Positions 16,730 to 30,218 of a stretch of DNA of 64,000 bases are shown piece by piece; positions within the stretch are counted from its first letter, which is position 1, and each line of letters starts with the position of its first letter. Source of the stretch: an uncultured Gemmatimonadota bacterium (lineage in GTDB: Bacteria; Gemmatimonadota; Gemmatimonadetes; Palauibacterales; Palauibacteraceae); assembly GCA_964627425.1 (NCBI GenBank), contig CAZVIY010000011.1, forward strand, positions 7,763-71,762, in the 5' to 3' direction. The translations under genes were made by a program, and so were the position numbers. The notes under the pieces were generated by a model. That model was not told the origin of the DNA and did no database searches. It was given only the letters and a program-made list of their open reading frames with translations.

Positions 16730-16828
16730 CGGCCGGACGGCTTCCCGATGGCCGCACGTCTGCCCGGTAGAGGGCCGGGGGGCGCCGACGAGTCGCGCAG
16801 ATCAACCCGTCACGACGAGGAGGGAACC

Positions 16829-17287
16829 ATGTGGAGCGACTTCAGGAAGTTCGTGGCCCGCGGCAGCGTGGTGGACCTGGCCGTGGGGATCATCATCGGG
16901 GCCGCCTTCGGCACGGTGGTGAGCTCCTTCGTCCAGGACGTGCTCATGCCCCCCATCGGCCTGCTCACCGGGGGCACCGACTTCTCCGAGCTGTACCTGA
17001 ACCTCTCGGGCGGGGAGTACGCCTCCCTGGCCGCCGCCACCGAGGCGGGCGCCGCCACCATCAACTACGGCGTCTTCCTCAACAACGTGATCAGCTTCTT
17101 CATCGTGGCGCTGGCCGTCTTCTTCTTCGTGAAGGGCTACCAGCGGATCGAGCGGGAGGAGGCGGAGGCCCCGCCCCCGCCCACCGAGAAGGCGTGCCCG
17201 CACTGCGCCACGAACATCCCCGTGGCCGCCCGCCGGTGCCCGAACTGCACCTCGGAGCTGGAGGGAGCCCCGGCGGCGGACACCTGA
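16829..17287 (+). CDS. mscL: Large-conductance mechanosensitive channel with C-terminal Zn-ribbon-like motif
   Basis: Start corrected to MWSDFRKFVARGSVVDLAVGIIIGAAFG; INYGVFLNNVISF; CPHC..CPNC tail. Confidence 0.95.
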   Translation: MWSDFRKFVARGSVVDLAVGIIIGAAFGTVVSSFVQDVLMPPIGLLTGGTDFSELYLNLSGGEYASLAAATEAGAATINYGVFLNNVISFFIVALAVFFFVKGYQRIEREEAEAPPPPTEKACPHCATNIPVAARRCPNCTSELEGAPAADT

Positions 17288-17365: not shown

Positions 17366-20300
17366 TCAGCCCCCGTCCACCGACAGCGGCGAGGGCCGGG
17401 GTTCCACCACCCGGGTCTGGTACTCCTCCAGGTAGGCGCGGTCGGCAGAGTCCCGGGGAAAGCGCTCCCCCGGCGGCGGCGGATACGCCGACAGGCCGTG
17501 ATGGGGCATGGGCTCCACGGTATGCCCGGTGCGGGTGTTCAGGTCGGCGTCCTTGATCCAGCCGTTGCTGTAGAGCAGGAAGGTCCGGCTCCACCCCGCC
17601 GGGAGCTCGGGGAAGGCGTCGGACGGGAAGGAGAGCTCGATCTCGTCGCCCGGCGCCATGACCACCGACCGGCTGTCGGCCGCCGTCAGGAGCTCCCGGA
17701 CGTCACCGTACCGGGTGTACCGTCCGGTGATGGCCCGACCCCACCGGGGCTCCTGGCTCACGGAGTCGTAGTCGAACCAGTGGGGCCCGTGCCGGCCGCC
17801 CTTCCGGTACTCCCGGGAGAAGCCGCGGTAGGCCAGCTCCGCGCGGTGGGGATGGGCGGCCGTCCGGCGGAGCTCCACGTCGGGACGGGCCACGGCGAAG
17901 GAGGCCTCGTCCCAGTAGACCTCCATGCTCGTGCGGATCCGCACCCGCGGATCCTCCGCCGGGAGAAGCCCGGTGAGGTCGGCGATCACGGTCTTCTCCT
18001 TCCCCGAGGGGAATCCCAGGTCGGGCATGACCGTCCTCCAGCCGCCCTCCCCGTCCGGCACCTGCAGGTACGGCGGGACCACCGACATCCGGGGGTTCTG
18101 GCCGATGGCCACGTTGATGCTCGCGTCGGTGGGGAAGACCCATCCCCGGAGGAAGAGCCGGATCCGCTCCCCCACCTCCGTCTCCGGCGCCCGGAGCACG
18201 ATCTCGTGCGGTTCGGTCACGCCCTGGTACCGGGTGGGCGTGAGATCCGCCACGTGGACGTCGTCGGAGGCCCTCAGCTCGGGCAGGACGTCCTCGCCCT
18301 CGCCGTCCCACGCCGCGGCCGGGGGCCGACGGGCCGACACCGGGTGGAGCTCGTCGTTGGGCGGGCCCGGCGGTCGGAAGGCCTCGTTCACGAAGAGCTC
18401 CGCCGTGTCCGGGTGGTCCACCGCCACCAGTCGGAGCTCGTCCACGTAGGCCACCTCCCAGAGCTCCTCGGTGAGCCGGAGGGAGTAGGCCCCGTCCCGC
18501 TCCCGGAGGGCTCCCGGCGGGATCCGGACGTACTCCAGCGACGCCCCGGGCGGCGCGTAGCGGGCCGGCGAGGCGGGCGCGCCGGCGCCGCCCGACCCCG
18601 GCCCCGACCGCGCGTCCTCCGGCGCCCCGGGCCCGCTCATGATGCCCAGGGGCATGCCCAGGGCCGAGCGCCACATGACGTCGGTGACCATCTCGTAGCC
18701 CTCGCCGTCCCAGGCGTAGAGGAACGCGCAGGAACCCTTCAGCTCCTGGTCCTCGGCGGCAGCTGTGCCGGCGCTCGCCTCGTAGCGGACCTGGGGCACC
18801 CCGTTGGGCCACACGATCCGGACCACGTCCGCCCGGGAGCGGTCGGCCAGGCCGATGTGGGTCACCGGCTCCTGGACGGTCCGCGTCTGGTACAGGTCCC
18901 CGGCGCGGACCTCCACCCGGGCGCCGATGCCGAAGTGGTTGTTCTTGCCGCTGCCGTCGCGGAGGCCCACCAGCCGGAGGCGGAGGAAGTGGTTGGCGTT
19001 GCCCCCGTCGTTCCGCAGGTACGCCAGCCCCCCGGATCCGGCCACCACCAGGTCCAGGTCGCCGTCGTCGTCGAAGTCCGCCACCGCGAGACGGTCGGTC
19101 CCGGCCGGAACGGACCCGTCCACCACCTCCGGCGCCCGTCGGAAGCCTCCGTCCGCCCGGCCGAAGAAGACCTCCAGCTGACGACGGTCGGCCCCGGCCC
19201 CCGTGGCCGCCGCCGGGCCCACCCGGATCAGGTCCAGCCGTCCGTCGTTGTCCAGGTCCGCCAGGCGGAGCGCCGCCGGGGCCCGGGCCGGGTCCGACAC
19301 CGGCCCCCCGGCCCCTCCCCCGGCCGAACTGTCGCCCTCCCCGGGGGCCACGGAGCCCGACCGCCGGAACGACCCGGTCCCGTCGTTCTCCAGGAGGACC
19401 GGCGTCCGTCCGTCCCGGGCCACCACCAGCTCGGGCGCCCCGTCGTGGTCCACGTCCCCGGCGGCCAGGGAGACCCCCGCGCGCCCGTCGGACGCCGCCG
19501 CCTCGATCTCCCGGGCGTCGAAGCGCCCGTGGCCCCGGTTCCGGTACAGGTGGATCGAGCCCCCGGGGCCGGTGGCCACCAGGTCCAGGTAACCGTCGCC
19601 GTCGACGTCCAGGAAGAGGGCGTCGGGACGGGAGCCCGCGCCGTCGGCGGCCAGGCCCATCTCCCCGGCCAGCTCCGTGTAGGTGCCGTCCCCGTCGTTC
19701 CGGTACGCCAGGTTCCGTCCCCCGGCCGCCACGAAGACGTCCAGGTCCCCGTCCTGGTCCAGGTCCAGCACCTGCACGTCCCCGGGAGCGGTCCCGTCGG
19801 GCACGGGGAGCCCGGTCACCCGGCCCGCCGAGCCGTCACCGGCCGCCTCACCCGCCGGCCCGCCCTCGGCGGAGCGGATCAGGCTCACCCTCTCCCGGCC
19901 CGCCAGGACCAGGTCGAGCCTGCCGTCGTTGTCCAGGTCGGCCACGGCCGCGGACCGGACCTCCCCGGGGACCGCGTCGGACGGGAGGCCGCTCGCCTCG
20001 ACGAACCGGCCGCCCCCGTTCCGGTAGATCCGACCCCCCACGACCAGGTCGGGGCTTCCGTCGCCCGTCACGTCCCCCGCGGCCAGGACCCCCGGCGCCG
20101 CCTCGGAGAGGCCCACCGTCCCGGTGGCCGGACGAAGATGCAGCGCCTCGCCGGCGGCCCGGCCCGCCACGCCCCGGGCGAAGGAGAGTTCCATGGTGCC
20201 GGGCCGGACGCCCCTGGGACCCCGGAGGTCGTTCAGCGCCGCCTGGTAGGCGGTGGTCAGCTCGTATCGCCGGCGAAAGGCCCCGAGCTCCTCCAGGGCG

Positions 20301-21073
20301 GCCTCCCCCCGGCCCTCCCGGGCCGCCTCCAGGGCTCCCTCGAAGCCGGCGACGGCGTCGGACGGGAACGCCGGCGCCACCTGACGGAGCTCCTCCAGCT
20401 CCGCCGCCGCCTCTCCGGCCCGACCCTCCTCCAGCTCAGCCTGGGCCAGCTCCAGGCGCGCCGCCACGTTCTCCGGCGACGACTCCACCAGCTCCCGGAG
20501 CAGAGCCGTCCGATCCCCGGGAGAGAGCCGGCTCAGCTCCCACAGGGCCCGCCGGCCCACGTCCCCGTCCACCAGCTCCTGCAGGGACGATCGGGCCTCG
20601 GCCGTATCGCCCGCCGCGGCCCGGGCCGTGGCCATGAGGAGCCGGAGCTCCCCTCCCGCCTCGGCCGGGCTCCGGTCCAGGGCCTGTCGGCCCCAGTCCA
20701 GGGCCGCCGCCGGGTCGCCCCTCTGCAGGGCCACCCGGGCCAGGCTGGCGTAGCCCGCCGGGCTCTCGGGGGCCAGCTCCACCAGGCGGCGGAACTGCTC
20801 CTCGGCCGCCTCCAGCCGGCCGTCCTCCAGGTAGGCGGTGCCCAGGGTCCGGGCGGTGAGGGCCTCGGTGCCCCCCGCCGTCCCGGAACCCGGATCGGCG
20901 GCCTGCTCCCCGTCGCTCCCGCACGCGCCAGCGGCGAGCGCCGCCGTCATGAAGAGCACCACCGGCCACGCCGCCCGGGACCACGGAGCTCGACACCGAC
21001 CGCCGGTTCGGCCGTCGGCCCGGTCGTCGGCGCGGCCGCCGCCCCGGCCGACGGTCCGTCCCCGCCCGATCAC
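17366..21073 (-). CDS. Large lipoprotein: TPR region, FG-GAP/VCBS repeats, ASPIC/UnbV domain and uncharacterised C-terminal domain
   Basis: Start corrected to GTG 21073 (GTGA overlap with upstream stop). Lipobox-like LAAGAC, TPR helices, many DxDxDGxxD repeats, NNHFGIGARVEV..HIGL (ASPIC), KGSCAFLYAWDG. Confidence 0.88.
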   Translation of the reverse strand: MIGRGRTVGRGGGRADDRADGRTGGRCRAPWSRAAWPVVLFMTAALAAGACGSDGEQAADPGSGTAGGTEALTARTLGTAYLEDGRLEAAEEQFRRLVELAPESPAGYASLARVALQRGDPAAALDWGRQALDRSPAEAGGELRLLMATARAAAGDTAEARSSLQELVDGDVGRRALWELSRLSPGDRTALLRELVESSPENVAARLELAQAELEEGRAGEAAAELEELRQVAPAFPSDAVAGFEGALEAAREGRGEAALEELGAFRRRYELTTAYQAALNDLRGPRGVRPGTMELSFARGVAGRAAGEALHLRPATGTVGLSEAAPGVLAAGDVTGDGSPDLVVGGRIYRNGGGRFVEASGLPSDAVPGEVRSAAVADLDNDGRLDLVLAGRERVSLIRSAEGGPAGEAAGDGSAGRVTGLPVPDGTAPGDVQVLDLDQDGDLDVFVAAGGRNLAYRNDGDGTYTELAGEMGLAADGAGSRPDALFLDVDGDGYLDLVATGPGGSIHLYRNRGHGRFDAREIEAAASDGRAGVSLAAGDVDHDGAPELVVARDGRTPVLLENDGTGSFRRSGSVAPGEGDSSAGGGAGGPVSDPARAPAALRLADLDNDGRLDLIRVGPAAATGAGADRRQLEVFFGRADGGFRRAPEVVDGSVPAGTDRLAVADFDDDGDLDLVVAGSGGLAYLRNDGGNANHFLRLRLVGLRDGSGKNNHFGIGARVEVRAGDLYQTRTVQEPVTHIGLADRSRADVVRIVWPNGVPQVRYEASAGTAAAEDQELKGSCAFLYAWDGEGYEMVTDVMWRSALGMPLGIMSGPGAPEDARSGPGSGGAGAPASPARYAPPGASLEYVRIPPGALRERDGAYSLRLTEELWEVAYVDELRLVAVDHPDTAELFVNEAFRPPGPPNDELHPVSARRPPAAAWDGEGEDVLPELRASDDVHVADLTPTRYQGVTEPHEIVLRAPETEVGERIRLFLRGWVFPTDASINVAIGQNPRMSVVPPYLQVPDGEGGWRTVMPDLGFPSGKEKTVIADLTGLLPAEDPRVRIRTSMEVYWDEASFAVARPDVELRRTAAHPHRAELAYRGFSREYRKGGRHGPHWFDYDSVSQEPRWGRAITGRYTRYGDVRELLTAADSRSVVMAPGDEIELSFPSDAFPELPAGWSRTFLLYSNGWIKDADLNTRTGHTVEPMPHHGLSAYPPPPGERFPRDSADRAYLEEYQTRVVEPRPSPLSVDGG

Positions 21074-21978
21074 GCTCCCGCCTCCGCCTTCCGGTGCCGG
21101 TCGATCCACATGGCCGCCGGGCCGACCAGCCACAGCGCCAGGATGGGCGGCGAGTAGTAGAGCGGCCCGAGGAAGCCGACACCGTGGTCGGCCGCCGTAC
21201 GGATGAGAGACTCCACCAGAGCGATGATCAGCACCACGGCGATCCTTCCCTTCTTGCTGGAGACGGTGGTCCGGGGATCGGTGACCATGAAGAAGACGAA
21301 GAGCTGGTACATGGGACCGGTGACCGGCGCCACTTCCGCGAGGAAGGGGCCCCCGCCCCCGACGAGGGTGCGGAGACCGGCCAGCGCCACGAAGGCGATC
21401 ACGTAGGTCCCGGTCACGTGAAGCATCCCCACCCGTGCCACGATCATCAAGCCGAAGAACCAGATGACGGCGTTCACCGCCAGGCTGTTTCCCATCTGCT
21501 GGCTGAGGATGGCCACGCTCTCCGGCGCCAGGAGCACCAGGGCGCCGATGCCGAAGTTGCTGGGGTTGAACAGGTGGCGACCCCGGTGGCGGATCACGTA
21601 CTTGGAGGCGATGGACAGGAAGCCGCCCAGGAGGAACGGCCACAGGATGTTGGCCTGCGGCTTCGTGAGGATGGCGAGGCTCACGCCCGTGATGTAGGCG
21701 CTCACCGGGCTCGCCAGCTCGCCCCGTACCAGCCAGGACAGCGCGAGCTCCGTGACGATGCAGGCCACCAGGGCCCCGACCAGGCGCTCGTAGCCCCCCA
21801 GGACCCCGTAGCTGGCCTCGCCCAACACCAGGACCGTGGTGATGAGGGCGACGATGAGGGTCTTGGGCTGGAGCCCCGCCAGCCAGTCCACCGCTCCGTC
21901 CGGGAGGAGGCTCCGGAGGAGCGACCCGGCCCGGGACGCGGCCCCGGCGCCGGCCCCGGCGGACGCGCTCTCGCTCAC
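21070..21978 (-). CDS. UnbU-like / RnfD-NqrB-related integral membrane protein
   Basis: Multi-TM; SAYITGVSL, SKYVIR..RHLFNPSNFG, FFMVTDPRT. Confidence 0.8.
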   Translation of the reverse strand: MSESASAGAGAGAASRAGSLLRSLLPDGAVDWLAGLQPKTLIVALITTVLVLGEASYGVLGGYERLVGALVACIVTELALSWLVRGELASPVSAYITGVSLAILTKPQANILWPFLLGGFLSIASKYVIRHRGRHLFNPSNFGIGALVLLAPESVAILSQQMGNSLAVNAVIWFFGLMIVARVGMLHVTGTYVIAFVALAGLRTLVGGGGPFLAEVAPVTGPMYQLFVFFMVTDPRTTVSSKKGRIAVVLIIALVESLIRTAADHGVGFLGPLYYSPPILALWLVGPAAMWIDRHRKAEAGA

Positions 21979-21982
21979 CCCC

Positions 21983-23773
21983 TCACCCGCCGTCCGCGGT
22001 GGAATCGGGCTCCTGGATCAGGTGGACGGTCTCCCCCGCCGGGCCGTCGATGCGCTGCCGGAGGCCCGAAGGCCACTCGATGACCGTGCTGTCGGGTCGC
22101 GCCTCGCCGTCCAGGCCGAAGAGGAGCCTCGGGCCGTTCTGCGACGCGAAGCCCGTGGCCGCCGTCTTCACCTGGGTTCGGGCGCCAGTCTCGCCGTACA
22201 CGGTGACCCGGGCCCCCACCGCCCCCCGGTTGCTGACGGTCCCCTCCAGGTCGAAGGCGATCCAGCCCGGCGAGCCGTCCACGTCGTTCCGGTAGATCAG
22301 CGCCCGGTCCGCCTGGTTCGCCACGGCGGCGTCCAGGTCGCCGTCGTTGTCCAGGTCCGCCAGAGCCAGCCCCCGACCGTCGAGCCGGTCCTGGATCCCC
22401 ACGCTTCCCGCCACGTCGGCGAAGCCTTCGCTCCCCCGGTTCACGAGGACCCGGGACCGCTGGTATCCGGAGAGGCTCCGGTCCCCGATGGCCGGCCAGT
22501 TCTCGGCGTTCTGGAAGATCGCCTTGTTGGCGCCGGTGATCTTCGCCATGTCGTACCAATACTGGTCGTTCCGGTCGGCGGAGATCATCCCGTTGACCAC
22601 CATGAGATCCGCCCGGCCGTCCAGGTTCAGGTCCCCGAACTGGGCGCCCCAGGCCCAGCCCGCGTCGGCCACGGGACCGGTGGCCACCTCCTCGAAGCGC
22701 CCCAGCTCGTCCAGGAAGTTGATCCGGAGGTTGTTCCCCTGGAACAGGTAACCCCGCTCGGAGATGTTGGTCACGTAGACGTCGAGTCTCCCCCTGCTCT
22801 GGACGTCACCCAGGGCCACGGTCATGCCGCTCCCGGATTCGCCCAGCCCCGCCTCGACCCGCTCGAACCGCTCCCCCTCCCGATTCAGCCAGAGCTCCTC
22901 GGGCCCGTAGTCGTTGGCCAGGTAGAGGTCCGGCCAGCCGTCGTCGTTCAGGTCCGCCGAGGCCACCGCCAGCGTCCACCGCGTCGTCCCCGCGCCGACC
23001 TCGTCGGTCACCTCGCGGAAGCGCCCGTCGCCCAGATTGCGGAAGAGCCGGTTTTCCCCGCCGTTCATGGCGTATTCCCAGCTCTCCGGAAGGACGCTGG
23101 TGGTCTCCAGGTCCCAGAGGGTGAGATCCTCCCGGTAGTAGCCGCAGACGTAGAGGTCCAGCCGCCCGTCCCGGTCGTAGTCGAACCACACGGCGCAGTT
23201 GGAGTTCATCCAGCGATCGAGGCCGGCCTCCCCGGTCACGTCCTCGAAGGCGAGGGTCCCCGTCTCGGACAGCCGGTTCTCCATCAGTGCGAGCCGCCCC
23301 CACCGGTAGACCAGGGCGTCGGTGTCGCCGTCGTTGTCGTAGTCGGCCCACACGGAGCCCATGGAGACCCCCTCGCCCCGGCGGTTCAGCTCCGCCAGGC
23401 CCACCTCACCGGCAATCTCCCGGAAGGTCCCGTCCCCCTGGTTCAGGTAGAACGCGTTGGGATGGCCGAAGCGGCTGTTGGTGAAGTAGAGGTCCACCCA
23501 TCCGTCGTCGTTCGCGTCCACCGCGGCCACCGAGGCCCCCATCATGGCGATGTAGGGCTCGATGTGGGAGAGCTTGGGATCCAGCTCGGGCGGATGGTGG
23601 ACGAACTCCACGCCGGCCCTCGCGGAGATCTCCTGGAAGCGGAATCCGGCGTCCACCGCGTCTCCGCTGGCCAGGGCGGACCGGTTCAGGTGGACGACCA
23701 GGCCGAGGCCGGCCACGAAGAGCACCGTCACCGCGAGGCGTGCGATCTTCTCGGGGATCATGGGAGGGCTCAT
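21983..23773 (-). CDS. CRTAC1/ASPIC-UnbV family protein with FG-GAP repeats
   Basis: N-terminal anchor, DANDDGWVDLY, DYDNDGDTD, DYDRDGRLDLY, GWAWGA, SNRGAVGARVTV..GFASQN..LLFGL. Confidence 0.9.
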   Translation of the reverse strand: MSPPMIPEKIARLAVTVLFVAGLGLVVHLNRSALASGDAVDAGFRFQEISARAGVEFVHHPPELDPKLSHIEPYIAMMGASVAAVDANDDGWVDLYFTNSRFGHPNAFYLNQGDGTFREIAGEVGLAELNRRGEGVSMGSVWADYDNDGDTDALVYRWGRLALMENRLSETGTLAFEDVTGEAGLDRWMNSNCAVWFDYDRDGRLDLYVCGYYREDLTLWDLETTSVLPESWEYAMNGGENRLFRNLGDGRFREVTDEVGAGTTRWTLAVASADLNDDGWPDLYLANDYGPEELWLNREGERFERVEAGLGESGSGMTVALGDVQSRGRLDVYVTNISERGYLFQGNNLRINFLDELGRFEEVATGPVADAGWAWGAQFGDLNLDGRADLMVVNGMISADRNDQYWYDMAKITGANKAIFQNAENWPAIGDRSLSGYQRSRVLVNRGSEGFADVAGSVGIQDRLDGRGLALADLDNDGDLDAAVANQADRALIYRNDVDGSPGWIAFDLEGTVSNRGAVGARVTVYGETGARTQVKTAATGFASQNGPRLLFGLDGEARPDSTVIEWPSGLRQRIDGPAGETVHLIQEPDSTADGG

Positions 23774-23825
23774 ACCCTGCCGGCGTCCGTCGCGTGCCGG
23801 CTCCGGCGGGGGCGGTTGGCGGCCC

Positions 23826-24902
23826 TCAACGGAATCGCCAGAGCCGGACCTCGAGCTCCCGCTCCCCCTCCTCCGGGGCCCGGTGCTGGATCAGGATCGG
23901 GCTCTGGTAGGTGCCCTGCACGATGCGGTGGTCTCCCTCGCCCTCGCCCTCGTCGGGCCGGACCAGGAAGCTCACGCTCCGCTTGAGCCGGAAGAGTCGG
24001 AAGGCCGGGCCGGAGAGCCGGGACAGGATACGGTCGGTCACGTCCCGGCCCGCTCCCAGGAGGTCCATGGCCTCGTTGTAGAGGTGGAGGAGATCGTAGA
24101 CGGCGTACTCCCTGGTCCGGCCGGCGATGGAGCCGGGATTGCGGAGGAAGCGACGGCCGTGCTGCATCATGTAGCGGAGGGGGTTCCGGATCGCCTCCGG
24201 GAGGTCGTTGCGCATGAGCAGCGTCTCGTACTCGTTGACCGTGAGCCCGGCGTCCCGCTCCGCCGGCGGGAGACGGATCTCCACCCGGCCGTAGCGGACG
24301 TCCCGATCCAGGAGGAGACCGTGGAGGCGACCGAAGAGGCCGAACCGGTCCTCCTTCAGGTTGAACGAGTCCACCTGGTGCTCCGAGGGGACCGGGATCG
24401 AGACCGTTCCCCGAAAGGCCAGCTCCTCGTCGTCGAAGCCCACCACCGTGGTCCGCCGGGTACGGGTGAGATCCTCGTTCATCCCGTCCAGGTCGATGAA
24501 GTAGATGGGCCGGCCGGGTCGATTCTCGTAGGTCACGCAGTTCTTCAGCCCGGCGCTGATGTAGGTCAGGTGCGAGTCCGCGTTCACCGGCTCGCACTTC
24601 TTCTCCTCCTCGGTGAGCTCGTCCCTGAGCTCCATCCGATCGTGATGGTAGCCGGCGTCGGGAGGGAACACGCGCTGGAAGAGGCCGATGAAGCGGTCGA
24701 GCTCCTCGTTGCTGTTGCCCAGGCGCTCGCAGATCCACTCCTCCAGGTAGCCCGCGGTGGTATGGAACGAGCAGAGGAGTGTACGACGGTGCCTGCGGAA
24801 GAACTCCTCGTCCCTCTCCCGCACCTTCTCGGCCACGTCGATGAAGTCGGACCGGGAGCGGGGCTGGAGGTCGAGGCTGATTTCCGACGGGATGGACGCC
24901 AT
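23826..24902 (-). CDS. Protein with two tandem YjbQ/UPF0047-like repeats
   Basis: First half: HTTAG, PPDAGYHHD, NADSHL, IYFIDLDG..R. Second half: AGLTVNEYE..NDL, SVSFLV..IVQGTYQ. Matched by eye to YjbQ consensus. Confidence 0.65.
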   Translation of the reverse strand: MASIPSEISLDLQPRSRSDFIDVAEKVRERDEEFFRRHRRTLLCSFHTTAGYLEEWICERLGNSNEELDRFIGLFQRVFPPDAGYHHDRMELRDELTEEEKKCEPVNADSHLTYISAGLKNCVTYENRPGRPIYFIDLDGMNEDLTRTRRTTVVGFDDEELAFRGTVSIPVPSEHQVDSFNLKEDRFGLFGRLHGLLLDRDVRYGRVEIRLPPAERDAGLTVNEYETLLMRNDLPEAIRNPLRYMMQHGRRFLRNPGSIAGRTREYAVYDLLHLYNEAMDLLGAGRDVTDRILSRLSGPAFRLFRLKRSVSFLVRPDEGEGEGDHRIVQGTYQSPILIQHRAPEEGERELEVRLWRFR

Positions 24903-27415: not shown

Positions 27416-29413
27416 TCAGGGTCCGGACGCTCCGGGGCGCTCCTCCCCCACCACCCGGAGCCCCTCCGGGCCGAGCCGTACCGCCGGCAGGTAGACCCCC
27501 AGCCGACGCCGCACCCACCAGTCGCCGGTGGCCGCCCGCTCCTCGGGCGTGGAGAAGCGGTACTCGTAGAGGATCGCCCGCACCGCCTCCGGCGGCCCGT
27601 CGGCCAGCCGGCCCTCCCCGTCCCCGAGGAAGCCGGCCACCGGCCGGGACCCGGACAGGAGGGCCTCCGCCAGGCCGGTGAACCAGCGGTCGTAGGAGGG
27701 CCGTCCCGTCGGACTCCGGTGGGCCCGGAGGGCGGCGAACCACATCTGCCAGTCCAGCCGGGGCTGGTGGGGAGCCACCTGAGCCGGGCGCTCCCCCGGA
27801 TCGTCGGGCTTGTAGGCGAACTCCACCTCCCTCCACGGGCCGTCCCGGCCCCGCACTTCCAGCACCAGCTCCGGACGCTCCGTGGTCATGTCCGCGAAGA
27901 GGCCGTAGCCGTTCACCGCACGGAACGGGGCCACCGCCGCTTCCACCGACCGGACCACCGGGATCCCCTCGTCCATCCCTCCGGCCCGGAGGGCCTGTGC
28001 CAGGCCCACCGGGACCGCCACCGCCAGCAGGAGCGCCGTGGCCGCCCGGCGTCCCCGTCTCCGCCAGGAACCCCCTGCCCGTCGGCCGGCCTCTCCGGGG
28101 GCCCCGTCGTCCCGTCCCGCGAGCGCACCGAGGACCCGGGCGGCCCCCGGCACCCGCGACGCCGCCCGACGCCACGCCGCATCGTCGAACGCCGACAGCG
28201 CCAGGGCCGCCACGAGGACGTTGAAGAAGCCGTAGTTGCCCGTGAGGGCGATGAGGCCCTGGAGCCCGAGTACGGCCCCGGCACCGGCGAAGCGGAGCCG
28301 CCGGGGCAGGAGCAGGAGAGCCGGGGCACAGAGCTCCACCGCCAGCGTGAGAGCGGTCCCGGCGCGGTGGATCCATCCCGGGGCGTGATGGACGAACCAG
28401 GCCACCGTGTTCGGGAGGGGCTGGGTCTCGAAGTGATGGGCCAGAGCCGTGAGATCCAGCCACACGGGATCGCCGCCCGACAGCTTCACCAGGCCGGACT
28501 CGAGCGTCACCCGGATCAGGATCCACCAGAAGATCCAGAGGACGGGGAGCGAGACCTCCCGGAGGCGCAGGATCCGCCGCCAGCCCCCGGGAGCGGATCC
28601 GCGGACGGGCGGCACCGCGGCCAGGACGACGCCGGCCAGGCCCACCTCCAGCAGGAGGGCGTCCCACTGGAAGGCCATGAACTCCTGGCCGGCTACCGTG
28701 AGGGACAGGTAGAGGAGCCACGCCACCGCCGCGGTCGCCGCCGGCGCCACGCCCAGCAGGAGGAGCGCCGACGCCCCGGCTCCGCCCCAGGCCATGGCGG
28801 CCAGGGCCGTCCCGCCGTCGGCCAGCCAGGCCAGCGTCGGGGCCGCGTGCCAGGCCGCCGGTCCCTCCCCCGCCGTCTCCCGGAGCCAGGCCAGGTACTC
28901 GCCGACCGGGAGGAGGCCCTCCGGCCCCGCCAGTCCCCGCACCTGGAGGGCCAGGGAGACGAAGGCCACGAGGTACACCAGGGCCAGGGCCCGCAGCAGC
29001 AGCCAGGTCCCCGTCCGGAACGACGACGGCCGGGGATCGGATCCCCAGACGAACCGGGTGATCCGTCCGAAGCCTGACCGGTGGTCCGCCACCACCCGGT
29101 AGCCCGCCTCGGTGATCCAGCGGACCGGCGGGAGGCTCCGGTAGAGCCACCACGGAAACCGCCAGGCCGGGTCGTAGGCCATGAGGCGCCACGCCGCCGC
29201 CGCGCCCTCGTGGACCTCCCCCTCGCGCGTCACCAGCTTGGAGGAACGGCGGAAGTCCTCCGGCTCGAGATCCGGGAACTCCCCCTCCACCTCCTGATAG
29301 GGGGCGAAGTCCACCAGCTCCCCCACCCGGGCCCGCCAGCGGATCATCCAGTACCGGCAGAAGCCGCAGTCGCCGTCCCAGATGAACAGGGGGCGGTCTC
29401 TCGGTTCAGCCAT
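27416..29413 (-). CDS. Lipase maturation factor (LMF1) family protein fused to N-terminal DCC1-like (DUF393) thiol-disulfide domain
   Basis: Start corrected to MAEPRDRP at 29413. WDGDCGFC; then FQWDALLLE, SGLVKL, HFETQPLP, TGNYGFFN, NGYGLF, HQPRLDWQMWFAAL. Confidence 0.9.
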   Translation of the reverse strand: MAEPRDRPLFIWDGDCGFCRYWMIRWRARVGELVDFAPYQEVEGEFPDLEPEDFRRSSKLVTREGEVHEGAAAAWRLMAYDPAWRFPWWLYRSLPPVRWITEAGYRVVADHRSGFGRITRFVWGSDPRPSSFRTGTWLLLRALALVYLVAFVSLALQVRGLAGPEGLLPVGEYLAWLRETAGEGPAAWHAAPTLAWLADGGTALAAMAWGGAGASALLLLGVAPAATAAVAWLLYLSLTVAGQEFMAFQWDALLLEVGLAGVVLAAVPPVRGSAPGGWRRILRLREVSLPVLWIFWWILIRVTLESGLVKLSGGDPVWLDLTALAHHFETQPLPNTVAWFVHHAPGWIHRAGTALTLAVELCAPALLLLPRRLRFAGAGAVLGLQGLIALTGNYGFFNVLVAALALSAFDDAAWRRAASRVPGAARVLGALAGRDDGAPGEAGRRAGGSWRRRGRRAATALLLAVAVPVGLAQALRAGGMDEGIPVVRSVEAAVAPFRAVNGYGLFADMTTERPELVLEVRGRDGPWREVEFAYKPDDPGERPAQVAPHQPRLDWQMWFAALRAHRSPTGRPSYDRWFTGLAEALLSGSRPVAGFLGDGEGRLADGPPEAVRAILYEYRFSTPEERAATGDWWVRRRLGVYLPAVRLGPEGLRVVGEERPGASGP

Positions 29414-30218
29414 CGGCGCTCCACGCCCGGGCGAGCTCCCGGACCCGGGCCGCCACCACCGGACCGCCCGGCCGGCCGTCGGCACGGAGATCCGACCCGA
29501 CGATCACCCCGTGCCGCCCGGTGCGGAGCTCGGCCGCACCGGCGGCGGTGACCCCGCTCCCGATCCACATGGGGACCTCCCCGACGACCGCCGTCACCCG
29601 GTCGAGCACGTCACGCGAGACCGGCTCCCCGGTGGCCGGGCCCGTGACGATCACGGCGTCCGCACCGGCCCGCTCCACCAGCTCCCGGGCCTCCTCCTCC
29701 GGCGGGCGAGGGGCCAGGGGAGCGGAGTGCTTCACGTCGACGTCCGCCAGGAGCCGGATCCCGCCGCCGAGGGCGCCCCTGTGGCGGAGGAGCCGATGGG
29801 CCCTCCCCTCCACGATGCCCTGATCGGTGACCCGGGCGCCGACCAGGACGTTCACCCGGATGAACGAGCCCCCGGCGGCCGCGGCCACCGCCAGTGCCGC
29901 CCGCCCGTCGTTCCGGAGCACGTTGATCCCCAGGGGGAGCTCCGGAGCCTCCTCCCGGACCTCCCGGGCGAGCACCGTCATGTGGGAGACCGTCTCCGGG
30001 GGCACGGCGCCGGGATGGAACGGCGCGTCGCCGAAGTTCTCCAGGAGGACGCCGTCCGCCCCACCCTCCGACAGGGCCCGGGCGTCGGCGCGGACGCGCT
30101 CCCGGACCGCCGGGAACGGGCCCTCCCACCCGGGAGAGCCCGGGAGCGGGGGCACGTGGATCACACCCACGAAGGGATCCGGCCGCCCGAAGGCTTCGGC
30201 CACCCACTCCCCGCTCAT
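29406..30218 (-). CDS. BtpA/SgcQ family TIM-barrel protein
   Basis: Start corrected to 30218. GVIHVPPLPG, ENFGDAPF, GINVLRND, ADVDVKH, IVTGPATG, IVGS. Confidence 0.9.
   Translation of the reverse strand: MSGEWVAEAFGRPDPFVGVIHVPPLPGSPGWEGPFPAVRERVRADARALSEGGADGVLLENFGDAPFHPGAVPPETVSHMTVLAREVREEAPELPLGINVLRNDGRAALAVAAAAGGSFIRVNVLVGARVTDQGIVEGRAHRLLRHRGALGGGIRLLADVDVKHSAPLAPRPPEEEARELVERAGADAVIVTGPATGEPVSRDVLDRVTAVVGEVPMWIGSGVTAAGAAELRTGRHGVIVGSDLRADGRPGGPVVAARVRELARAWSADG

Follow-up and report, generated by a model that had tools for sequence, protein, structure and literature searches.

UnbV- and UnbU-like genes in a putative three-gene envelope module free of polyketide synthase genes

In the described enediyne clusters, the five genes of the warhead cassette (E3, E4, E5, E and E10) are found together (PMC5181780). 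The role of E3, E4 and E5 has been unknown since 2003 and was still called so in 2023 (PMC9992847); for one gene of the warhead cassette a membrane di-iron desaturase/acetylenase has been proposed, as yet unproven (PMC8341276). Searches of the literature under UnbU/UnbV, SgcE4/E5, CalU15 and prokaryotic CRTAC1 returned cassette definitions and one acetylenase proposal only, and no paper on a UnbV/UnbU module free of PKS genes. As an authentic reference we used the cassette of S. clavuligerus pSCL4, whose genes are arranged as DUF1702-VCBS-UnbU-PKSE-TE. Where relatives occur in biosynthetic clusters, a polyene-type synthase accompanies them (PKSE in the Streptomyces case, KS/CLF/ACP in that of a Serratia plasmid).

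We studied four neighbouring genes in a 64-kb stretch of Gemmatimonadota DNA, referred to here as the window. All four were called as ORFs in the minus strand: A (positions 23826-24902, 358 aa), B (21983-23773, 596 aa), C (21070-21978, 302 aa) and D (17366-21073, 1235 aa), the last being the sole ORF of at least 1000 aa near the locus. A and B are separated by 52 nt and B and C by 4 nt, while C and D have a spacing of -4 nt, the stop codon of C and the start codon of D overlapping in the 4-nt sequence GTGA; the ORF coordinates thus agree with the layout given in the first-pass annotation. The genes around C are FG-GAP/ASPIC genes, the YjbQ-like gene, MscL, MscS and TrkAH, and Pfam scans of the remainder of the 64 kb showed housekeeping genes. 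Sequencing runs matching the window were soil-metagenome DNA runs only, with no RNA run among them.

Over their full length, the products of B and C are homologous to UnbV (E4) and UnbU (E5), respectively, and their genes nearly overlap in the same V-to-U order as in the enediyne cassette. The locus differs from the cassette in that PKSE, thioesterase and UnbL/DUF1702 are missing, identity is only ~30%, D comes in addition as a TPR-propeller lipoprotein, and the hosts are Gram-negative soil lineages, not actinomycetes. We give about an even chance to the reading that B-C-D is one copy of a widespread three-gene, PKS-independent envelope module, paralogous to the UnbV/UnbU pair, whose products would form one complex handling a lipid-like molecule, and that A is an unrelated neighbour.

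Judged by its sequence, B is a membrane-anchored protein of the CRTAC1 family and a homologue of UnbV/E4. Hydropathy analysis predicted a single N-terminal transmembrane anchor (residues ~13-32, nt 23678-23737, minus strand), after which Pfam detected a seven-bladed FG-GAP propeller (FG-GAP_3 in seven stretches, 9e-41) with six calcium-type Dx[DN]xDG motifs, and a C-terminal ASPIC/UnbV domain (UnbV_ASPIC, 3e-13; residues 518-580, nt 22034-22222, minus strand). BLASTP alignment with UnbV of the pSCL4 cassette showed 30% identity over 556 aa (E 4e-45) and took in the N-terminal hydrophobic helix, an anchor that enediyne UnbV has as well. Both the Pfam domains and this homology support the earlier naming of B as an ASPIC/UnbV protein.

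The sequence of C likewise points to a full-length UnbU homologue, and to a distant relative of RnfD/NqrB. The protein matched PF03116 at 30.7 bits, barely past the cut-off of 27.7, and was 31% identical to the annotated UnbU of the pSCL4 cassette (E 2e-15), with which the C-family profile aligned over 257 columns (hhalign, 99.8%, E 3.9e-29). No curated NCBIfam model is applicable to the UnbU family, since authentic UnbU itself has no match. The family alignment revealed the motifs SKYxxRxxGRHxFNPSNFG and FFMxTDPxTT and the invariant residues S93, K126, H135, P139, D234 and P235. K126, H135 and the NPSNFG and TDP motifs are common to C and enediyne UnbU, the shared segments reading RHxxNPSNFG and MxTDPxTT; the module clade also has an invariant S93, which UnbU of the enediyne cassette lacks. 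In the HMM check suggested for the UnbU and UnbV assignments, B thus scored above cut-off for UnbV_ASPIC and C narrowly so for the broad PF03116, and the description of C as a UnbU/RnfD-like membrane protein stands. The three His boxes of a di-iron acetylenase are absent from the C family, in which H135 is the sole invariant histidine and no His box is conserved, which argues against this assignment.

Against the PDB, the C-family profile found RnfD (8ahx_D, E 7e-15) and NqrB (7xk3_B, E 1.6e-5), and C resembles both in its polytopic membrane fold and in segments of the NPxNPxxxG and FFMATDP types. Residues ~143-225 of RnfD, a loop of ~80 residues that we take to be the site of covalently bound FMN, have no counterpart in the profile. 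The flavinylation motif [ST]G[AS][TS] was not found in 33 of 35 members of the family, and in the other two it lay at a non-homologous place. C scored 26 bits against the TIGR01946 rnfD model, whose cut-off is 207, and no gene for RnfA/B/C/E/G, NqrA/C-F or ApbE was found near C or in the ORFs scanned elsewhere in the window. On these grounds (a score far under the rnfD cut-off, no flavin loop, no partner subunits nearby) C was rejected as a canonical RnfD/NqrB, an identity that the first-pass annotation had named as one of two findings that would undo its reading. In a broader sense, the module might still be an extracytoplasmic redox system, with C moving electrons or ions through the membrane in the manner of RnfD/NqrB, towards protein partners in the periplasm. 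Besides the homology itself, this is consistent with related stand-alone RnfD-like genes that have a redoxin as partner on a Metabacillus plasmid, with a NapH/MauN-like ferredoxin-type membrane protein encoded upstream of D in ~19 Acidobacteriota loci, and with a QhpG/LodB-like flavoprotein near the module in 14 loci. These redox-type neighbours are absent from the window, however, and may reflect within-phylum conservation only; with neither a flavinylated loop nor Rnf/Nqr partners or ApbE adjacent, and with only one His invariant and cofactor motifs undetected in the C family, we consider a redox function quite unlikely.

Gene D encodes, as stated earlier, a 1235-aa TPR-FG-GAP-ASPIC lipoprotein. 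A signal peptide with lipobox (…VVLFMTAALAAGAC51) runs to Cys51 (nt ~20921-20995, minus strand); it was recognized by a check against the general lipobox pattern only, and the n-region may be longer or shorter, as the start codon is uncertain. Pfam placed a TPR region at residues ~71-254 (nt ~20312-20863, minus strand), an ASPIC/UnbV domain at residues 715-766 (nt 18776-18931, minus strand) and an FG-GAP propeller between the two. The C-terminal region of 465 aa (nt 17369-18763, minus strand) is conserved among orthologues and all beta in the AlphaFold model (pLDDT 76, pTM 0.81). Foldseek returned no significant structure for it (best E 5e-3, TM <0.2), a PDB sequence profile search gave noise only, and it has no relative in Pfam. 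We also considered a Cys-Trp quinone cofactor in D, made by a QhpG-like neighbour, and rejected it because the Trp six residues after the invariant Cys12 is Tyr or Phe in several orthologues and because the window has no QhpG-like gene.

The FG-GAP repeats followed by UnbV_ASPIC, which scored above the Pfam cut-offs in both proteins, and the calcium-type Dx[DN]xDG motifs relate B and D to the CRTAC1/ASPIC family, and relatives of D carry the NCBI name 'CRTAC1 family protein'. These features would also fit proteins that bind matrix, glycans or surfaces, like CRTAC1 or integrin propellers, with C serving merely to anchor, export or assemble them, without any small-molecule chemistry. Many paralogous 1100-aa FG-GAP/ASPIC genes near related loci, and a SusC/SusD pair ~5 kb off in one Chitinophagaceae locus, point the same way. 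We hold this explanation to be unlikely, since B and D are each anchored already, B by a transmembrane segment and D by a lipid, and since the charged and polar intramembrane residues of C, common to enediyne UnbU, are invariant across clades at ~25% identity, which is beyond the needs of an anchor. B and D also depart from the CRTAC1/ASPIC family: B has a membrane anchor and a strict pairing with a UnbU-like gene, and D adds the lipobox, the TPRs and the C-terminal region described above.

Results of the synteny comparison showed that C is immediately preceded, in the same strand, by a B orthologue in 121 of 124 testable loci (70/72 from genomes and 51/52 from metagenomes). An orthologue of D, its C-terminal region included, was found near B-C in 77 of 93 (43/58 and 34/35, respectively); FG-GAP/ASPIC paralogues are very abundant in these phyla, so that chance proximity is inflated for D-like genes, although not the strict pairing of B with C. 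D is missing in ~17% of testable loci, and Planctomycetota mostly have B-C alone. The metagenome scan was seeded with distant UnbU members and returned the module clade (~45% identity to C), which is the clade that the sampled contexts cover. Module loci belong to Gemmatimonadota, Acidobacteriota, Planctomycetota and Bacteroidota, one of them lying in the complete genome of Engelhardtia mirabilis Pla133 (NZ_CP036287.1). UnbU-like proteins occur in at least 591 species representatives, the best 80 of which are all from non-actinobacterial phyla, and make up at least 1462 clusters at 50% identity. Natural fusions were also found, of UnbU with FG-GAP and ASPIC (P0252, P0351 and P0338) and of UnbU with TPR (P0368). 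The adjacency of B and C, the proximity of D, the tight gene spacing, these fusions and the lack of PKSE, TE and UnbL together argue for B-C-D as a conserved, PKS-independent envelope module.

The lack of enediyne partners was established with the authentic cassette as query. In tblastn searches, PKSE of pSCL4 had no match in the 64-kb window or in 165 loci, and no KS motif was present; thioesterase (E10) and UnbL/E3 (DUF1702) had no match at E<=1e-3 in the window and 160 related loci, the span searched around module loci being 6-10 kb. The absence of PKS, thioesterase and UnbL from the window, reported earlier, was thus upheld, and comparison across phyla, also proposed then, showed the B-C pair kept in several Gram-negative phyla without these three genes. 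Conceivably, B and C belong to a cryptic pathway of the enediyne or polyyne type, with the genes for its PKS, thioesterase and UnbL at another place in the genome, of which only 64 kb are visible; B and C are, after all, homologous to E4 and E5, and close homologues are labelled 'enediyne biosynthesis protein E5' in JGI/KEGG-style names. We regard such a pathway as very improbable: described clusters keep the five cassette genes together (PMC5181780), PKSE, E3 or E10 lay within 6-10 kb in 0/160 related loci, of at least 591 species representatives with a relative the best 80 are all non-actinobacterial, and the module recruits a dedicated lipoprotein, D, instead. Neither in the window nor in the 160 related loci did we find a pksE cluster that would account for B and C.

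Gene A encodes a conserved cytoplasmic protein and is a chance neighbour, outside the B-C-D module. Its sequence had no match in Pfam (PF01894 included), NCBIfam or PDB, even at E<=10. Its AlphaFold model, with a mean pLDDT of only 68, matched crystal structures of YjbQ/UPF0047 proteins in Foldseek (1vmf, 1ve0, 2p6c, 1vph and 1vmj; prob 1.0, E 9e-5 to 1e-3, target TM ~0.6), with E 9e-5 and TM 0.6 for 1vmf_A. Close homologues are named YjbQ by JGI, and A shares with YjbQ/UPF0047 the predicted fold and HTTAG- and GTxQ-like sequence motifs. It differs from them in being ~2.6 times longer, with a long helical insertion, in having no Pfam model match, and in forming a family of its own, highly conserved and length-invariant (3362 homologues, 54-65% identity, across phyla). 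The first-pass annotation had called A tandem YjbQ-like: the YjbQ-like fold was recovered by Foldseek; the profiles of the N- and C-terminal halves gave a probability of 0.15 in hhalign, with no detectable sequence similarity. Strands and helices follow a similar order in both halves of the predicted model, so that a duplication would be argued for by secondary structure and motif resemblance only.

The same annotation placed all four genes in one operon and tied the envelope proteins to the YjbQ-fold enzyme, and neither claim survived the comparison of contexts. Homologues of A elsewhere have unrelated neighbours, such as PLP decarboxylase and phosphoglucomutase genes, without B and C nearby, and 0/160 module loci contained one; since other genomes never have A beside the module, neither the four-gene operon nor the tie to YjbQ is supported. 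In favour of a functional four-gene operon, with A working alongside the envelope proteins, are the common strand, the 52-nt gap and the lack of a predicted terminator between A and B, the promoter/terminator scan being uninformative in DNA of 72% GC. Synteny largely refutes it, and its probability appears minimal.

Returning to B-C-D as an envelope module, C would be the membrane core, with a polytopic fold of the RnfD/NqrB type that has lost the flavin-bearing loop and keeps invariant polar residues within the membrane (K126; H135-x2-N-P-x-N; T-D234-P-x-T). One N-terminal helix would tether B beside C, its seven-bladed calcium-type propeller and ASPIC domain facing the periplasm, and D, the lipoprotein, would contribute a scaffold of TPRs, another propeller with ASPIC domain and a beta-rich domain of a novel kind. 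From gene context we infer this topology and a physical association of the three, most likely in one complex of inner membrane and periplasm. In such a complex, C may hand a lipid-like molecule, soluble in the membrane, to the propellers in the periplasm, or present it to them, to be bound or modified, presumably in parallel with E5 and E4 acting on the hydrophobic PKSE polyene; the substrate class is suggested only by analogy to enediyne clusters.

These results suggest that UnbV and UnbU are part of a far larger envelope module without PKS genes, present in at least several hundred species, which offers new and simpler systems for the study of the pair. The evidence argues against UnbU as an Rnf-type subunit with flavin or an acetylenase of the di-iron type, and corrects the routine labels 'RnfD', 'NqrB' and 'enediyne biosynthesis protein E5' for genomes without such a pathway. 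A bolder reading, which we offer tentatively and think rather doubtful as a whole, is that UnbU-type and UnbV-type proteins, often with a TPR-propeller lipoprotein, make up an undescribed envelope machine, common in Gram-negative soil phyla, from which E4/E5 were recruited and which carries out a defined step of chemistry or transport with a substrate soluble in the membrane, with a radical-SAM/QhpG-like pair perhaps as partner in some lineages. If this were so, solving that step would reveal the job of E4/E5 in the formation of the enediyne core.

The accessory genes near the module, none of which was found in the 64-kb window, vary by phylum and include a QhpG-like flavoprotein paired with a radical-SAM protein, a protein resembling NapH/MauN and a homologue of TauE. 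Some carriers of the module are in culture, for instance Engelhardtia mirabilis.

The four minus-strand open reading frames proposed in the first-pass annotation were all present exactly where it had placed them: gene A (23826-24902, 358 aa), gene B (21983-23773, 596 aa), gene C (21070-21978, 302 aa) and gene D (17366-21073, 1235 aa). Their third-position G+C was high, as in real genes, in a window of 70-76% G+C. Gaps of 52 nt and 4 nt separate A from B and B from C, respectively, and C overlaps D by GTGA, with a GGAGG-like stretch ahead of the overlap. The locus is flanked on one side by TrkH, TrkA, MscS and MscL and on the other by a divergent alpha/beta hydrolase, an FKBP and an LMF1-like protein; the remaining scanned ORFs of the window correspond to ordinary housekeeping functions, and close protein homologues came from soil metagenomes and Gemmatimonadota MAGs. 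In these flanks, the MscL homologue (16748-17287, plus strand) has a short C-terminal extension and a weak match to UPF0547 (zinc-ribbon-like), and a 689-aa protein (27416-29485, minus strand) joins a DCC1-like thiol-disulfide oxidoreductase domain to lipase maturation factor (LMF1) domains, being a bacterial homologue of the eukaryotic ER maturation factor.

Annotated UnbU genes were located on plasmids by a tblastn search. The gene order in S. clavuligerus pSCL4, i.e., DUF1702 (E3/UnbL), a VCBS protein (E4/UnbV), UnbU (E5), type I PKS (PKSE) and thioesterase, agrees with the published E3/E4/E5/E/E10 definition of the enediyne cassette (PMC5181780). Gene B presented seven FG-GAP_3 stretches followed by a C-terminal UnbV_ASPIC domain (Pfam), six Dx[DN]xDG motifs and a single hydrophobic helix at the N-terminus; it was 30% identical to the pSCL4 UnbV over 556 residues (E 4e-45), anchor helix included, and its identity as an ASPIC/UnbV protein was corroborated. 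Gene C was 31% identical to the pSCL4 UnbU (E 2e-15), and its family profile matched UnbU over 257 columns (99.8% probability, E 3.9e-29). The V-then-U order is common to B-C and the pSCL4 cassette. All features claimed for D were found: a lipobox (Cys51), TPRs, FG-GAP repeats and an ASPIC domain. Its 465-aa C-terminal region had no relative in Pfam or PDB; modelled as entirely beta (pLDDT 76), this region had no significant structural neighbour.

The description of C as UnbU/RnfD-like held for UnbU and for the broad Pfam family NQR2_RnfD_RnfE, whose cut-off it barely exceeded (30.7 versus 27.7 bits), but not for the specific rnfD model, which it failed widely (26 versus 207 bits). An alignment of 35 diverse members of the C family (21-65% identity) showed six invariant residues, S93, K126, H135, P139, D234 and P235, and the motifs SKYxxRxxGRHxFNPSNFG and FFMITDPxTTP. 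Its profile matched the structures of RnfD (8ahx_D, E 7e-15) and NqrB (E 1.6e-5), the former in two blocks that skipped RnfD residues ~143-225, the loop bearing covalently bound FMN. Since the family has no [ST]G[AS][TS] motif at the homologous place and only one invariant histidine, C is not a flavinylated Rnf/Nqr subunit, nor is it a di-iron desaturase of the histidine-box type. An extracytoplasmic redox system, to which the RnfD resemblance would lend itself, is accordingly a decidedly unlikely role. An orphan RnfD-fold gene without Rnf partners also occurs on a Metabacillus plasmid (NZ_CP088246.1, 7312-8699), where a stand-alone RnfD-like gene (265 aa, matching C at E 9e-15) overlaps with a gene for a redoxin (AhpC/TSA).

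Homologues of C were abundant: 1430 were scored in a protein set clustered at 90%, and there were 1462 clusters when the identity threshold was 50%. Scanning a single genome for each species gave at least 591 carriers. The best 80 of these loci belonged to Gemmatimonadota, Acidobacteriota, Planctomycetota, Bacteroidota (Chitinophagaceae) and Balneolales. In 70 of the 72 testable genome loci, a B orthologue encoded on the same strand ended within a few bases of the C start, and 43 of 58 loci also had a D orthologue that included the novel C-terminal region; as a rule the genes were ordered D-B-C, whereas in the window the order is B-C-D. A further 80 loci, drawn independently from metagenomes, had orthologues of B and D in 51/52 and 34/35 cases, and the B-C core was also present on two long Gemmatimonadota contigs. 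The conserved unit is B-C, usually with D. Natural fusions join UnbU to FG-GAP-ASPIC (cluster representatives P0252, P0351 and P0338) or to TPRs (P0368). In them the UnbU part comes first, the reverse of the B-to-C gene order, so that simple read-through from one gene into its neighbour is no explanation for them. A BNR-repeat domain is also fused to an UnbU-like domain among P0252, P0351, P0338, P0368 and P0388.

Gene A, in turn, had no HMM match and no PDB sequence match. Its structure model resembled YjbQ/UPF0047 crystal structures, supporting the proposed YjbQ-like fold, while the proposed tandem duplication was not detectable by sequence. The family (3362 scored homologues) is remarkably conserved and length-invariant (~356 aa) in many phyla, with 54-65% identity across Gemmatimonadota, Latescibacterota, Ignavibacteria, Thermodesulfobacteriota and Entotheonellaceae and many invariant residues (CSxHTTAGY, HD, NxDSH, QGTYQSPI). 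It has no Pfam model, the YjbQ-like fold being its sole match, and appears to be an enzyme under strong constraint, with no assigned function. The four genes had been proposed to form one operon tying UnbU/UnbV to this enzyme, a reading that their spacing invites and that is now very improbable: in each of three contexts inspected, the neighbours of A homologues were unrelated genes, and no A homologue occurred in the 80 genome and 80 metagenome loci. A is an accidental neighbour of the module, although it may be co-transcribed with it in the host organism.

As first proposed, the window lacks PKS, thioesterase and UnbL: tblastn with PKSE, E3 and E10 found no match. The same three were absent from the best 80 genome-scan loci, as was any KS motif, and from the 80 metagenome loci, so that the pairing of B and C across phyla stands apart from the cassette. 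A cryptic enediyne pathway with its PKS elsewhere in the genome would account for the homology to UnbU and UnbV, and is scarcely tenable beside these absences. The role of E3/E4/E5 in enediyne biosynthesis is stated to be unknown (PMC9992847), and an acetylenase function put forward for one of the cassette genes is unproven (PMC8341276). In biosynthetic clusters, UnbU/UnbV relatives are accompanied by a synthase that makes hydrophobic polyenes: PKSE in Streptomyces and, on a Serratia plasmid, a KS/CLF/ACP set together with DUF1702. This Serratia proteamaculans cluster (NZ_MT039191.1, 17169-34025) comprises DUF1702, a VCBS protein and an UnbU-like gene annotated RnfD, with ACP, KS and KS-like (CLF-type) genes in place of PKSE; it also contains TauE/SafE and UbiB genes, and a UbiB gene lies close to the S. 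clavuligerus cassette.

The strict pairing, the close gene spacing and the fusions speak for physical cooperation between B and C. From the predicted locations (C polytopic, B with one anchor helix, D a lipoprotein), the module would be sited at the inner membrane and periplasm. In the best reading, which we hold with middling confidence, a membrane-soluble molecule would be handled by C and delivered to the propellers on the periplasmic side. It is rather unlikely that the module serves to bind matrix or glycans, C then being an assembly factor. The individual domains are already known, and database entries for close homologues, of which there are many, bear misleading or empty names; the searchable literature yielded no account of an UnbV/UnbU/TPR-lipoprotein module independent of a PKS. 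The module provides simpler systems in which to address a question on the enediyne cassette that has stood for twenty years; the chemistry is not revealed by these findings.

Other loci carry accessory genes, none of them present in the window, which are leads rather than evidence on it. A radical-SAM-like gene adjoins a QhpG/LodB/GoxB-like flavoprotein gene near the module in 12-14 loci of three phyla (L017:5263-7829, L043:1226-3768, L069:12748-15212 and ~10 others near D-B-C); QhpG, LodB and GoxB are maturases of protein quinone cofactors. In ~19 Acidobacteriota loci (L037:1292-4005 and ~18 others), a NapH/MauN-like membrane protein (490 aa; the NapH/MauN-type ferredoxin similarity is weak) and an unknown 249-aa protein lie immediately upstream of D, and the order is D-B-C-B', with a further UnbV paralogue (B') after the UnbU-like gene. 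In Chitinophagaceae, a TauE/SafE homologue directly downstream of C (L043:10786-11817) is 44% identical to the TauE of the Serratia cluster.
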